A model generated the notes under the pieces. The model was not told the origin of the DNA and did no database searches. It saw only the letters and a list, made by a program, of their open reading frames with translations. From a virus (Duplodnaviria; Caudoviricetes): 64,000 nt of DNA. Positions 3,527-42,230 of the stretch are shown here, piece after piece; the first letter of the stretch is position 1; each line of letters begins with the position of its first letter. The stretch is from IMG/VR virus record IMGVR_UViG_3300031992_000012, positions 32,001 to 96,000 of that record; one strand, given 5' to 3'. A program made the position numbers and the translations under genes.

Positions 3527-3551
3527 AACAACACCCTTCCCGCGTAATAAT
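3522..3551 (+). promoter_or_regulatory. Repeated phage promoter copy 1
   Basis: GCTGAAA-N14-CGTAATAAT. Confidence 0.75.
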
Positions 3552-4654: not shown

Positions 4655-5236
4655 ATGAAAAAGACAGAAACCAAGAAAGAAACAGTAAAGAAGCCGAAGG
4701 CCGCAAGCCTCACCCTCTCACTGGTTCCCAACAAGATGATGCGGGCAACGCTGTCATGCAAGACGGTGCAGGAGCGCATTGCCCGCGTGATGCTGGACAA
4801 GGCGAACGAGACAACAGCCGGCCTACCAGGAGCCCTTGTCAATTCCGAGCTTTTCGAGGCGGCCGTCGCTTGGTGGGAAGGCGGAAAGGAAAGCGGGGCG
4901 TACCCGCTGTTCCAGGCCCTTTCCGACAGTGTCCCTGGTCTGGTGGCCATGCCAGTCGATACAGCCGACGGCGAAGACACCGCCGTCATCGTGGCCCTTC
5001 CTGACGACTTTTTCCCGGTCGACATGTGGCTGGCAATGTTCCTTATGAAGGAGCAGGGCATACACAAGGGCTATTCGCTTTATCGTAGCAGACAGGCGGT
5101 CAAGGTAGGGCAAGGGCGCTTCGGTGTCCTTAACCGGAACTACCATGTCGTAAGATTTACGGACAAGAAGATGGACGACGCGTGGACCAAGGTCAACCCT
5201 GTCTTCACTATTTCTCCGGAAGCGCTGAAACACTGA
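4655..5236 (+). CDS. Hypothetical protein
   Basis: 193-aa ORF with GGAG SD. Confidence 0.75.
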   Translation: MKKTETKKETVKKPKAASLTLSLVPNKMMRATLSCKTVQERIARVMLDKANETTAGLPGALVNSELFEAAVAWWEGGKESGAYPLFQALSDSVPGLVAMPVDTADGEDTAVIVALPDDFFPVDMWLAMFLMKEQGIHKGYSLYRSRQAVKVGQGRFGVLNRNYHVVRFTDKKMDDAWTKVNPVFTISPEALKH

Positions 5237-5253
5237 TTGTTTTGCGTAATAAT
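5224..5253 (+). promoter_or_regulatory. Repeated phage promoter copy 2 (drives ncRNA/tRNA)
   Basis: GCTGAAA-N14-CGTAATAAT. Confidence 0.75.
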
Positions 5254-5258
5254 TAATT

Positions 5259-5872
5259 GAAAGGACGGCCGTAGCACTGAAACAATGAAGTGCCATACAC
5301 CGTCCTTTCTTAGCGCATTGATTTCCTATGACCAAGACCATTGGCGATGATACGTATGGCGTTTCCATTTCTGGATAGCCACAGGGACAGTAACCCTGCG
5401 TTCTCGCTGCTGGAGGAGGTGGCCTAGCGGCTCCCGTGTGGATCTGGGGTCCCTTTCAGGGAGTTCCAAGTAGCGGGGTGACAGGAAGGTGTCGTCGTGA
5501 CAGGACGGCAGAATCCGTGCGTGAAGCTTCACATGTACTTTGCCGTCTCGGCACCGTGTCCGGCATGTGGAGGCTATCAGGACGATGGACGAGCCAAGGA
5601 CTCAGGCATTGTGTGCGCTATGCGCCACTATACCCTCGCTTGGGTGCGAGGGGTCGGTATCCATTCCGGCGTGCCTTCCTGGGTTATCTGAAAGGTCCTA
5701 TCGGAACCGGTTGGTCGCGGGCATTGTAGGCTGCGTGTCCGCGCCTGGAAACCACTGGTGGTTAAAAGAGAGTACGTTTGGCGTCCATAGGAGGGCGGCC
5801 GGTTTGTCTGGCCGCTGACGTCACCGCCAGGGGCGGCAAAAACCTACAGCCGGGGAGTCGTGCACCCTGGCA
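5259..5872 (+). ncRNA. Candidate large structured non-coding RNA (ROOL/GOLLD-like context, family not identified)
   Basis: ~610 nt with no credible ORF, between a promoter and a tRNA. Many helices: 5324-5330/5786-5792, 5374-5380/5572-5578, 5504-5512/5539-5547, 5482-5490/5673-5681, 5633-5639/5646-5652, 5716-5723/5736-5743. Confidence 0.6.
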
Positions 5873-5876
5873 TTTC

Positions 5877-5949
5877 GTCCGGGTAGCATAATGGATAATG
5901 CATCTGATTTCTAATCAGACGATTGCGGGTTCGAGTCCCGCCCCGGACA
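5877..5949 (+). tRNA. tRNA-Arg (anticodon UCU), CCA not encoded
   Basis: Acceptor GTCCGGG/CCCGGAC, anticodon stem TCTGA/TCAGA with loop TT-TCT-AA, T-arm GCGGG-TTCGAGT-CCCGC. Confidence 0.93.
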
Positions 5950-6049
5950 TCTGTTTGTTTTGTAAATGGAAGGCGGGTCTGCGTGAGCGGCCGCCTCGCC
6001 TTCCGGGTTTTTCCTTAGGCCGCAAAGTTTTTGTAAGGAGGCTAGTAAC

Positions 6050-6901
6050 ATGTACCTTAAACTCCACGTTGAGCGTGAAATCTCCAGTGCGGAACTGGAG
6101 GCATTTACAAAGATTCTACCCTTTCTCAAGAAGGGCATTGACACGGGCGAGCTGACGTTGTCCGACAACTCGGAACCGGTCAGGACACTTGAACTCCCAG
6201 AGGCCAAGATTGTCCCGGCGACAGCCGAGATTCGGCTGAAACCTGTCCGCAAGCCACACCGTCCTTGGCGTGTTCGCGTCGACCAGGCCATTCGGGCCTG
6301 CAAAGAATTCCGCGAAGGGAAATTCGCGGAAAACGTCGACATGATGCTTGAGACCTTTGCTTGGCAGGTCTCCGACATGGCCGAGTGGGTGCCATACACC
6401 CGCGAGGAAATAGCCGATGCACTGGTAATCGACAAGAGCGACGTTGACCCTCTGATGAAGACCTTCTACAGGGTTCTGAACCGCTCGTCCGCTCTAGCAA
6501 CCAACTGCTTCATGCTTCCGCCAACGCTGGCCGAGGCCGTCAAGAAGGAGGAGGCCAATACGGCGGAACGGGAGGCCCAGAACAAGGAGCAGACGGGTGA
6601 CGAGCACATCGGGTTTGAGCAGAACACAAAGAGAGCCATCACCGAGTCCCTGATGAAACTCGATTGGGATTCCCCGGACAGGTACGAGATGAAAATCTCT
6701 GACTTCCTGTTGTGGGGCAAGGTGAAGGACGCCAACAACATCAACGTCATCCGGAGTTTCATGCCTATCGCCCGGGGCATGAAATTGAGCATTCAACGTC
6801 TCCGTGCAGAGCGGGACTCCAAGAACAGAATCGTGGGAATCTACGCGTTCCCGCCGCCACGAAACGGAGCGTTCTGGAAGAGCGCGAAGAAAGTGGAATA
6901 A
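6050..6901 (+). CDS. Hypothetical protein
   Basis: 283-aa ORF with TAAGGAGG SD. Confidence 0.8.
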   Translation: MYLKLHVEREISSAELEAFTKILPFLKKGIDTGELTLSDNSEPVRTLELPEAKIVPATAEIRLKPVRKPHRPWRVRVDQAIRACKEFREGKFAENVDMMLETFAWQVSDMAEWVPYTREEIADALVIDKSDVDPLMKTFYRVLNRSSALATNCFMLPPTLAEAVKKEEANTAEREAQNKEQTGDEHIGFEQNTKRAITESLMKLDWDSPDRYEMKISDFLLWGKVKDANNINVIRSFMPIARGMKLSIQRLRAERDSKNRIVGIYAFPPPRNGAFWKSAKKVE

Positions 6902-7082
6902 TTTGCAATTTGATAGTGGCGGGAGGAGAAACAACGCTTATATTAATTAGCGTTGTCTTCGCCCCGCCTCCATTTTTTGGGGGAGGAAAACTACTAACAA
7001 ACACAACGGCAAAGCATGTCCGTCCGCATCTCACGGGAGGTGCGGGAAGTGGCCCAAGACGGCCTCGCGTGCTCTTTTTTAG

Positions 7083-10000
7083 ATGGAAGAAATCAGATTC
7101 TTTAGGAAGCGGTCCGGCCGTCTCGTGAACTTCAAACTGCAGAAGATTGCGGACGCGGTCGGGAAAGCCCTCGTCGAGGCGTGCGCAGCGTCGGGGAAGT
7201 CATTGGATGTCAAGGCCGTTTCCACGGCAATCGCCGAAAAGGTAAGGGCGTTGCTGGATGACAAGGACTCGCAGTTTTTCGTTCAGCCGGACAGGATGGG
7301 TTCGCGGGTCCCCCATCTGGAAGGCGTGCAGGACGCGGTTGTCAGCGTCCTCAAATCATCGCATGAAGATATAGAGGGGTATGACGCGAACATGGCCGAG
7401 CTCACGGGCCGTCTGTACGCCGACTACCGGAAGAAGAGGGACGAGGCCAGGAAGCAGCTCAAAGTCCGCAGCAGCAAGGACAACGCCGATGTGACTGACA
7501 AGGCCCTTCTCCTTGGGGACAGCAAGAACGTCCTCAACGGGTGGGACCGCGAGCGCATAGTCTCCGATCTCAAGGAGCACAACGTCGACGACGAAATAGC
7601 CGAGAAGGTCGCAAAGGAGACAGAAAGCGCTCTCCTGAAGACCGGCCTGTCTAGTGTGTCGTCCGACCTTGTCTCCGAATTGGTGAACAGTGTCATGGCC
7701 GACAACGGTCTTCCCATAAGACTCGCCGCCGGGAAGGGATACATAGTCGACAAGGATTTCGTCGAAGGGCTTATCAAGGAGAAGTCCGTAGAGAACAGCA
7801 ACATCGTCGGCAACAACCCTGAAGCGGTGGCCTTTGACATTGCCAGCAACGTTTTCAAGCAATACGCCCTTGACAACGTTTTCTCGAAGGACATCGGGGA
7901 AGCTCATATGAGGGGAGCAATACACCTTCATGATTTAAACTTTGTCATACGTGGCTACTGTGGTTCCCACAGCATCGAATACATCAAGAAGTGGGGGCTG
8001 AAGGGTCTGGTAAACCTGAACACGGAAAGCAAGCCTGCCAAGACCGCATCGGTCCTGACCGGCCATCTGAACACGTTCCTGGCTTCCATGCAGGCTTACT
8101 ACGCCGGAGCGCTGGGCCTGGGGTATCTTAACGTCCTCTATGCTCCGTTGATGACGGGAATGGACGACAAACAAATGCACCAGGTGGCTCAGGAACTTGT
8201 GTTCAACGGTTCTCAGAATGCGTTCAGCCGTGGTGGTCAATCACTGCATCCTTCCGAACCTATATGGATTAAAAAGGATGGTAGATATAAGAGTGTCCTT
8301 ATTGGTGAGTTTATCGACGAATATCTTGCCAGAAGGGCAGAGGCTGTTGAGAAGCGAGACGAATACGAGCTGCTCCAAACAGGAGACGAGGGTATCGAAA
8401 CAATAAGCTTCGACGGCCTAAGCGGAAAGGTACTGGACAAGACGGTTACTTTCCTTGCACGCATGCCTCATAAAGGCAAGATGTACCGTATTCACACGTC
8501 TAACGGAATTGTCAATGTTACAGGTGACCACTCGGTGTTCACTTTCCGGGGAAAGCAGGACATAGCTGATGTAAAAGCCAAGGACCTTAAGAGGGGCGAT
8601 TTTGTAGTCATACCCCACAGAGTTCCCCTCAAGGAGGAGAAGACAACAGTAAATGTTGTCGATTACGTTCCTGAGAAATGGCTATCGGTTAGTGGCTTTG
8701 AAAATTTCCTGTCCAAGGTGTCAGCTAAGGGCACCCCGGCAAAGGTCCTCGAGGAAGTCGGAGCTACCCGCTTTATCTTGAAAGATGGAAAGAAGACAAA
8801 CAAAGTAAGGATTTCCTTGGCTAAACATTTTGTTGATGTCAGGAATAGCGTTTTGTGTCTGAAGGGTGATAGCCAGTCGTTGTTGCCCGCAGAGATTCCT
8901 CTGACACGGGAGCTGGGCTATATAGCCGGTATGTTCTGCGCGGAGGGGTATAAAACTCTTAAGAAGGTTCTTATCAGCAATACTGATATAAAGCTTCTGG
9001 AGAAGGTACGGTCATGTCTGGATAAAATAGGGTACTCAGGATATTCCTATTACAACGGCATGATGCACGGAATGACGACGGACCATATAGAAATAGGCGG
9101 TGTTTTCGGGGCTTTCCTGCAATCTTCGTGTACATCCGGAAAGAAGACAAAAGTAGTTCCGGATTGGTTGTTCAACGCACCAATGGTTTGTCGTGAGGGG
9201 TTCCTTGATGGTTTCTTCGACGGTGAAGGCTCCAATAGGAAAGACTGCCCGGACGAATGGAGCGTCTCCAACACAAGCACACGGGTAGTGGCCGGTATAA
9301 GCTTGCTTTTACTGAACTACGGTAGAGAAACATATGTTTACGAAACCAAGCATGACAATGGCTGGTCTGACGTATATGAAGTCCGGGAAGCGCAGCGCAG
9401 AAAGGTCAATCCGTTTGACGAGTACACAACGGAAGAAGGGTTCCGCACATACAGCAAGCATCTGTCAAAGGATGTCAGGGATGCCGTGGAATGGCTCATA
9501 GAGTCAGACTTGTCGGTGTCTATCATCAAACGCATTGAGGAATACGATTATGATGGTCCTGTCTATGACATAAGCGTCCCAGGCACAGAGGCTTTCCTTG
9601 GTGGAACAGGGAATGTGTTTTTGCACAATACGCTTTTCATTGACTTCAATGTCCACAGCGGCGTCCCGTCGTATCTGAAGGATGTCCCCGCTATTGGACC
9701 TGGCGGAAAGTACATGGTTCAGGTCTTCCACTGCGGCGAACCCTTCATCAAGGAGCTCACCGAAGTCAAGGACGAGAAGACAGGCGACTGGGACCTCTAC
9801 CTTGACTGGGGCAACGAACATCCTGTCCGCATGCTTCATGAACACGACGGAAAGCAGGTGTTCGAGAACGAAAACACCGAGCGCCATGTCATGCGCTACG
9901 GCGACTACGCCGAGGATACCGCCCGTTTCGCCGAGGCGTTGCTCGACGTCTGGAAGGAAGGCGACGCCAATGGCCATGTTTTCGAGTTCCCCAAGTGCGA

Positions 10001-31767: not shown

Positions 31768-32406
31768 ATGAACATCACGCAACGCAACTACCTCAAGCAG
31801 AAGGTCGATGCAATCATGGGACGGTTGAACTCCGACGTGCAGATCGCACGCTCGAAGGCAATCTCCGAAATCCTGGCTTCCACCTTTGAGGAAAACCTTC
31901 GCACCAATATCGTCGAGATGACCCACGCCCTCGACGCCATGTCGGCCGACCCCAAGGGGTTCGTCGACGAAGCCATGCGCACGTGGAGCGAGCAGAACCA
32001 CCAGTTCTACACGAACTATCCGCGCAATGACGCCCGTGACGCCTCCAACTACTTCAAGAGCATGCTGAACCATCTCGGCAGCACCGTCATCACCTCGCTT
32101 GTCAGGAGTGAAGGCCTTCTCCCGGACTCCGAGACCGCCGGCGCCACCATCGCCAAGGTTTTCGATGAATTCGAGAACATCTACAAGGTAATCTCACAGG
32201 AAGGCAACAAGCTAAAGGACCGCATCATGCTGGACAAGGACGCCGACGCGCTGGTCAAGGCGCTTGCGGATTTCGAGACCATGCTCACCGTCCGCACGAA
32301 CACTCTGCTGGCGGAGTACAAGGATAAAAAGGAAGCCCCCGCCGACATCCCTGCGCCGGTCAAGCCGAAGGTTCGCCGCTGCCGCCGTGAAGTCCGCAAG
32401 AAATAA
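31768..32406 (+). CDS. Hypothetical helical protein
   Basis: AAGGAG SD, 212 aa. Confidence 0.8.
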   Translation: MNITQRNYLKQKVDAIMGRLNSDVQIARSKAISEILASTFEENLRTNIVEMTHALDAMSADPKGFVDEAMRTWSEQNHQFYTNYPRNDARDASNYFKSMLNHLGSTVITSLVRSEGLLPDSETAGATIAKVFDEFENIYKVISQEGNKLKDRIMLDKDADALVKALADFETMLTVRTNTLLAEYKDKKEAPADIPAPVKPKVRRCRREVRKK

Positions 32407-41324: not shown

Positions 41325-41840
41325 ATGACCGTCTACATCTATTTCTGGGGCCATACCTCGGTGCCGGGGCGCATTACGCGTTCCTGTCTGAGCCAATGGT
41401 ATCCAGCGCCGTTCACCGAGAACGACGTGACATTCCCCACGGCCGAGCATTACATGATGTACCAGAAGGCGAAGCTGTTCGGCGACAAGGAGGCCATGAA
41501 GGCGATTCTCGAGGCCGGCACGCCGAAGGCGGCCAAGGAACTGGGCCGCCATGTGAAGCATTTCCGCCCGGATGTCTGGGAGAAACATTGCCGTGAAATC
41601 GTCGCGCAGGGCAATTACCTGAAGTTCTCGCAGAACAAGGAGCTTGGCCATTACCTCAACCGCACCGGCAAGGCAATCCTTGTCGAAGCGAGCCCCTACG
41701 ACAAAATCTGGGGCATCGGAATCAGCCGTGAGGACGCCGAGAAAGGCGTCGACTGGCAAGGCACCAACTGGCTCGGCGAGGCGCTCATGCGGGTGCGCGA
41801 CTGGTTAAAGCCCTGGCATCCGGAAGGAACGGTGAAATGA
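41325..41840 (+). CDS. NADAR family protein (YbiA/DUF1768)
   Basis: CLSQWY, FPTAEHYMMYQKAKLFGD, LKFSQN, LVEASPYDKIWGIG, WQGTNWLGEALMRVR. Confidence 0.95.
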   Translation: MTVYIYFWGHTSVPGRITRSCLSQWYPAPFTENDVTFPTAEHYMMYQKAKLFGDKEAMKAILEAGTPKAAKELGRHVKHFRPDVWEKHCREIVAQGNYLKFSQNKELGHYLNRTGKAILVEASPYDKIWGIGISREDAEKGVDWQGTNWLGEALMRVRDWLKPWHPEGTVK

Positions 41841-42230
41841 AGAGGGGGAGGTGAATATGTGGAAATGTGTTTGCGACATCTGCGGAAAGGAGATGATACC
41901 GCTTGACGCGCATGAGTGCAGAATTAGCTTCAAGGACAAAAGCAAGCGTTTTATCCATGCTCTGACAATCACGATAGACACAGGCCATTATGTAGAAAAC
42001 CCGATTCCGTTGTTCGAAGGTCAGGTGTGCAACGACTGCGCCCGCAAACTGGAACAAGGGCTACGGGAAGACATCAAAAAAATACAAAGTGACATAAAAG
42101 ACAAGGAGGCGAAATGACACAGAAACAAACATGGCACGAACGACATGTCCGACTGGTCGCCAAAGCGCGGGACATGCGGATGTGCGACCGGCTCAAACCA
42201 CGGCATCCGGAAGGAACGGTGAAATGAAGA
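41786..42230 (+). repeat. 58-bp imperfect direct repeat (41786-41843 and 42173-42230)
   Basis: Last 29 nt identical: GGCATCCGGAAGGAACGGTGAAATGAAGA. Confidence 0.8.
41851..42117 (+). CDS. Small zinc-ribbon protein
   Basis: CDICG ... CNDC. Confidence 0.7.
   Translation: MNMWKCVCDICGKEMIPLDAHECRISFKDKSKRFIHALTITIDTGHYVENPIPLFEGQVCNDCARKLEQGLREDIKKIQSDIKDKEAK

Follow-up and report, generated by a model that had tools for sequence, protein, structure and literature searches.

The window analysed in this study covers 64,000 nt, from base 32001 to base 96000 of an IMG/VR phage record that is 205 kb long and has an estimated completeness of 94%. All of its long ORFs are on the + strand. The neighbourhood of the locus includes genes for a multisubunit RNA polymerase, which is split by a LAGLIDADG/intein-like element, and for an anaerobic ribonucleotide reductase with an intein. 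The polymerase is only 28% identical to that of the nearest cultured phages, and therefore a comparison of synteny was impossible. Also, elsewhere in the window, a 58-nt sequence is repeated directly (41786-41843 and 42173-42230, with 86% identity between the copies); a ribosome-binding site and a start codon lie at its end, which suggests tandem paralogous small genes.

The locus itself is a gap of 813 nt (5237-6049) between an ORF of 193 aa (4655-5236) and another of 283 aa (6050-6901). It contains a phage promoter, about 618 nt without a conserved ORF, a tRNA-Arg(TCT) and a terminator. The original prediction had described a region free of credible ORFs between a promoter copy and a tRNA-Arg, and all three elements of that description were recovered. 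The single gene found in the gap by ARAGORN and Rfam is the tRNA-Arg(TCT) (5877-5949, + strand), which scores 74 bits with the Rfam tRNA model. The promoter (5225-5253, + strand) is composed of a -35-like CTGAAAC at 5225-5231 and a -10-like GCGTAATAAT at 5244-5253, and the transcript is predicted to start at about 5259-5262. The -10-like sequence occurs seven times in the 205-kb genome compared with about 0.4 expected, and every copy is intergenic and on the + strand (window positions 3542, 5244, 14453, 31122 and 51554; genome positions 20221 and 153520). The copies have an A-rich element about 13-14 nt upstream, and a hairpin begins a few nucleotides downstream, at the predicted transcript start. 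From its distribution, GCGTAATAAT is a predicted promoter motif specific to this phage.

The copy at genome position 153520, outside the window, precedes about 1 kb of hairpin-rich sequence followed by a cluster of seven tRNAs (G000:C1:153520-154500, corresponding to L018:221-1200). This sequence holds a long near-perfect hairpin (L018:541-625), and an Rfam search of L018:221-1200 returned tRNAs only. Further non-coding RNAs may be present there.

Downstream of the promoter, the region can be divided into four segments, all on the + strand. The 5' terminal hairpin (5259-5309) has an outer stem 5259-5268/5300-5309 and an inner stem 5274-5278/5289-5293. Because other promoter copies precede similar hairpins, it is regarded as the generic transcript 5' end of the phage and not as a part specific to this RNA. 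A leader segment (5310-5356) follows, and then a variable hairpin (5357-5381, UGGC...GCCA with the inner stem UCCA/UGGA). The core of the non-coding RNA (5382-5876) has about 495 nt with 61% GC, and no Rfam model matches it. Beyond the tRNA lies an intrinsic terminator (5968-6012, + strand), a strong inverted repeat with the stem 5968-5982/5990-6004 followed by GGGTTTTT. With the promoter motif upstream and the terminator stem downstream, the unit thus consists of the promoter, about 618 nt, the tRNA and the terminator.

The proteins encoded on both sides are ORFans: in a set of about 15 billion predicted proteins, only 3-5 variants of them are present. The contigs carrying these variants gave four diverged lineages of one rare jumbo-phage clade: the window (identical to L005), L002 (identical to L003), L014, and the pair L004 and L015, which come from the same sample. 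Only four or five related lineages are known, and they are closely related. The promoter is kept in L002, L014 and L004, and the alignments show the leader segment kept in all four lineages. Other searches were less productive. HMMER with the 193-aa protein against 1.84 billion representatives recovered its own clade only, and no relatives came from the IMG/VR locus search, for which the queries were the proteins of 193 aa, 283 aa and 250 aa and the N-terminus of NrdD. Exact-motif scans of IMG/VR, the JGI metagenomes and the GTDB genomes with an 18-mer and a 19-mer from the leader and three core motifs gave chance matches only, as checked by blastn and nhmmer; one of the motifs spanned variable sites and was a poor probe. 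Against cultured phages, blastn matched the tRNA alone, nhmmer over the phage's own genome revealed no paralogue of the RNA, and no description of such an RNA was found in literature searches.

When the window is compared with L002, the 29 substitutions in the RNA region are distributed as 12, 11 and 6 over the three codon positions, so that no codon periodicity is visible; the flanking ORFs have the usual third-position excess. All indels between lineages in the RNA region are of 1-2 nt. The mechanical ORFs of 64-97 aa in the region (5436-5729, 5497-5691 and 5540-5818) are each frameshifted in some lineage, and none of the ORFs in the RNA region survives in all lineages. Across the six lineage pairs, the identity of the RNA always lies within 92.9-95.3%, and the same range applies to the core. 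Third codon positions are less conserved, with 83-91% identity for the two genes upstream and 54-74% for the gene downstream. Given 92.9-95.3% against 54-91%, no periodicity and indels of only 1-2 nt, the region is therefore a selected non-coding element. The divergence is star-like with no near-zero pairs, which argues for purifying selection over all 618 nt and not for one recent exchange, and phage mosaicism could add to the low divergence of the RNA. The original prediction of a non-coding RNA co-transcribed with tRNA-Arg fits the promoter, the terminator, the non-coding substitutions and the strong purifying selection.

We now turn to the structure. The MFE of the RNA sequence in the window is -267.9 kcal/mol, with a z-score of -2.9 against 20 shuffles. 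Among 254 folding windows along the 64 kb, those at the locus take ranks 3 to 7 once the energy is corrected for GC content. The region is thus predicted to fold better than chance, as a moderate outlier only. Evidence from sequence change is clearest in local hairpins, where four compensatory pairs were found among the four lineages (about 6% divergence): 5266/5302, 5278/5289, 5364/5375 and 5751/5762. Two of them are in the 5' hairpin, in which 5266/5302 appears as C-G, U-G and U-A and 5278/5289 as U-A, U-G and C-G; the outer stem 5259-5268/5300-5309 of the original prediction therefore covaries. The pair 5364/5375 in the hairpin 5357-5381 changes from U-A to C-G in L014, where this hairpin refolds. 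Stems are kept while the loops vary in sequence and length in the hairpins 5611-5628, 5750-5763, 5794-5816 and 5824-5836. Together with 5716-5743, 5849-5871 and the three-tier hairpin 5488-5555, which is kept in all lineages, these are the best-supported hairpins of the core. Also, changed pair cells were kept by 35 to 17 on the + strand compared with 12 to 33 on the - strand.

For the whole fold, the covariation check among homologues that had been proposed gave no significant result with four lineages at about 6% divergence. On the window's MFE structure there is one double change in 187 pairs, and no measure exceeds the shuffles. The test has little power because of this low divergence. In event-level tests over the four lineages, the substitution spectrum and the placement of substitutions were not significantly different from neutral; substitutions at unpaired or hairpin-loop positions and the placement of indels showed trends only, none of them significant. 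The predicted folds are multibranched, and their long-range helices disagree between the MFE and alifold structures. The global fold of the RNA is accordingly a prediction and is not established.

The individual helices proposed earlier fared differently. RNAalifold reproduces 5488-5494/5549-5555 and 5504-5512/5539-5547, which are paired in all lineages, and the substitution U5492C turns a U-G pair into C-G. The two strands of the proposed closing helix (5324-5330/5786-5792) are complementary in the window; neither the MFE nor the alifold structure contains this helix, and a deletion in L014 and the substitution A5787U in L015 go uncompensated in it. The helix 5374-5380/5572-5578 is in competition with a local hairpin, 5357-5381, in which a true compensatory pair was found. 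For the two suggested pseudoknots, 5482-5490/5673-5681 contains an A-C mismatch in one lineage, and the TGTAGG/CCTACA candidate is invariant in all lineages. The reading as a new large RNA class is still the best one, but covariation does not support the ornate long-range architecture and the pseudoknots that came with it, since the four lineages resemble each other too closely.

The lineages also differ in the tRNAs attached to the RNA. In L002, the tRNA is Arg-CCT in place of Arg-TCT. The two tRNAs differ at 26 of 74 positions, and the flanking 100 nt are 100% identical. As an observation on the tRNAs themselves, the difference is mosaic (window 5877-5949 against L002:7247-7320), with the acceptor and T arms identical and the D and anticodon arms different. 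From the alignment, the switch from Arg-TCT to Arg-CCT looks like a cassette-like exchange of the tRNA interior. Next to it, the terminator and the 5' UTR of the 283-aa gene (5950-6049) have the same sequence in the window and in L002 (100% identity), although the gene itself reaches only 82%, and this untranslated region may be a regulatory element.

In L014, a 134-aa HNH endonuclease gene (L014:4488-4892) stands where the tRNA-Arg would be, and the RNA (about 93.5% identity), the promoter and the terminator are retained. The 193-aa ORF (window 4655-5236) is precisely missing from the same lineage, in which its last few bases remain before the promoter (L014:3689-3700).

The third kind of variation was found in the pair L004 and L015. 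The end of L004 matches tRNA positions 1-32 (21 bits) and the start of L015 matches positions 18-71 (31.6 bits); the two contigs overlap by 15 nt only, and their merged sequence yields a tRNA-Gly(GCC). It takes the exact place of the apex of the hairpin 5357-5381, parting the leader from the core, and in the merged sequence the hairpin's own stem UGGCUA/UAGCCA lengthens the acceptor stem of the tRNA by six base pairs. From L014 without a tRNA and L004/L015 with a grafted one, the RNA therefore outlasts the loss of its tRNA and tolerates a whole tRNA on one hairpin. L015 also carries an Arg-like tRNA (L015:561-634) with an 8-nt anticodon loop (GTTCTAAT), called 'tRNA-???' by ARAGORN; possible explanations are a tRNA of the frameshift-suppressor type, a pseudogene or an error in the assembly.

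For the known RNA families, cmscan was run with all 4227 Rfam families, at the gathering threshold for the window and at E<=10 for a segment of 1 kb, a segment of 581 nt and the loci of the relatives. Apart from the tRNA, nothing but noise was returned. In particular, there was no match at E<=10 to the models of RNase P RNA, tmRNA, group I/II introns, 6S, OLE, HEARO or raiA, and ARAGORN found no tmRNA; the original prediction had likewise seen no signatures of RNase P, tmRNA or group I/II introns. The family cut-offs of 99.1 bits for ROOL (RF03087) and 150 bits for GOLLD (RF02032) were not reached by the RNA, and searches of the whole phage with both models gave no match at E<=10. In the direct ROOL search the control genomes gave no match either, and cmscan is the main ROOL test. 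Membership in ROOL was rejected, with no RF03087 match at E<=10 over 1 kb, 581 nt or the whole genome, and the suggestion of a ROOL-like RNA does not hold in the sense of family membership. Membership in GOLLD was also rejected, as RF02032 gave no match at E<=10 and no shared conserved 3' domain was detectable. Since all the Rfam models fail, the RNA is outside the ROOL, GOLLD, RNase P, tmRNA, OLE, HEARO, raiA and intron families.

The locus probably holds a new large RNA, about 500-620 nt long, of a rare clade of rumen (cattle) jumbo phages. We give somewhat better than even chances to the full reading, in which 5259-5876 is the gene of a non-coding RNA, stable and folded and belonging to a new family, which is co-transcribed with the tRNA, is released by tRNA processing and acts in trans like GOLLD and ROOL. 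One of the phage's own GCGTAATAAT promoters would produce a primary transcript of about 750 nt with the 5' hairpin, the leader, the core, the tRNA-Arg and the terminator. Host tRNA-processing enzymes would then free the tRNA and an RNA of 500-620 nt, whose 3' end would be set by the RNase P cut at the 5' end of the tRNA. Once freed, the RNA would have a trans-acting role in infection, as GOLLD and ROOL are suspected to have. The GCGTAATAAT motif, the terminator stem, the tRNA, the non-coding substitutions, purifying selection, the retention of the RNA after a swap or loss of the tRNA, the tRNA nested in one hairpin and several conserved local hairpins are what was observed. That the locus is transcribed and its product processed, and that the RNA has the predicted global fold and acts in trans, is our inference.

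The main rival is a cis-acting leader of the tRNA operon, that is, a folded 5' region which serves only the expression, stability or ordered processing of the downstream or nested tRNAs and has no function once it is cut off. It would account for a promoter and a terminator common to the RNA and tRNA-Arg, for a second tRNA inside the RNA in one lineage, and for another GCGTAATAAT promoter before about 1 kb of hairpin-rich sequence ahead of the 7-tRNA cluster. Nevertheless, L014 has kept the whole RNA at about 93.5% identity without a tRNA, and some 500 nt under uniform purifying selection are much more than known tRNA leaders need. Weakened by L014, this explanation is possible but unlikely; even if it were the correct one, the leader would be unusually long and conserved. 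We find it less probable again that the region is a DNA-level element (a scaffold for recombination or homing, or an origin) or was recently exchanged among the lineages, with a low divergence unrelated to RNA function. All six lineage pairs diverge equally by about 5-7% in a star-like pattern without near-identical pairs, the region has no iterons and no AT-rich unwinding element, the pair-preserving changes favour the + strand, and the region lies between a promoter and a terminator. These points have to be set against two hot spots at its borders, with the 193-aa ORF present or absent on the 5' side and tRNA swaps and the HNH insertion on the 3' side, and against the mosaic divergence of the neighbourhood, where for example nrdD is 96-97% identical at 7050-7850.

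A decayed relic is improbable, be it a degenerate tRNA array, an intron without its ORF, a remnant of a mobile element or a dead gene. The context is rich in tRNAs, and inteins and homing endonucleases are plentiful nearby, but a relic would diverge at least as much as synonymous sites and the region evolves several times more slowly. Also, no reading frame is preserved, and the core has no weak matches to tRNA or to group I or group II introns at E<=10. The least probable explanation, to which we attach very little weight, is that one or more small proteins are encoded. The mechanical ORFs of 64-97 aa and a 21-codon ATG ORF from 5286 could be taken as candidates; however, single-nucleotide indels in other lineages frameshift every one of them, the substitutions have no third-position bias, and gene callers put no gene here on any relative's contig.

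Returning to the reading as a trans-acting non-coding RNA, a family that is new and analogous to GOLLD and ROOL is likely. A wider proposal, which we offer as speculation with the odds against it, is that the RNA founds a third family besides these two, made up of large phage RNAs with an equivalent function: an RNA-only assembly or scaffold in which tRNAs can be covalently nested, which matures through the tRNA-processing machinery of the host and which jumbo phages use in the takeover of an anaerobic rumen host. An independent family, if true, would strengthen the idea that such RNAs belong to a strategy which is general among phages and linked to tRNA biology. The natural variants, with the tRNA swapped, lost or inserted, are ready comparisons for experiments.

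Among the known systems, the stable RNAs from the tRNA region of phage T4 (species 1 and 2, also named RNA C and D) have about 120-140 nt. They are made in the same transcripts as tRNAs and freed by the tRNA-processing machinery, and their function is unexplained. They resemble the present RNA as tRNA-linked phage non-coding RNAs but are far shorter. GOLLD and ROOL form RNA-only cages whose function is likewise unexplained. Their common context is found here as well, in a phage record with a tRNA-Arg directly 3' of the RNA. ROOL (RF03087) shares the rumen origin, the length of about 580 nt, and the occurrence in phages and prophages, often beside tRNAs; it spans three phyla, whereas the present RNA is limited to one rare phage clade. 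GOLLD (RF02032) is also large and non-coding and occurs in phages and prophages next to tRNAs, but many of its members exceed 800 nt when compared to about 500-620 nt here. The linker region of GOLLD sometimes carries tRNAs (bioRxiv 10.1101/2024.12.08.627333). These nested tRNAs resemble the tRNA-Gly on the hairpin tip in one of our lineages, as an analogy and not as evidence of homology. In its genomic habit and its tolerance of a nested tRNA, the candidate RNA described here is like GOLLD and ROOL.
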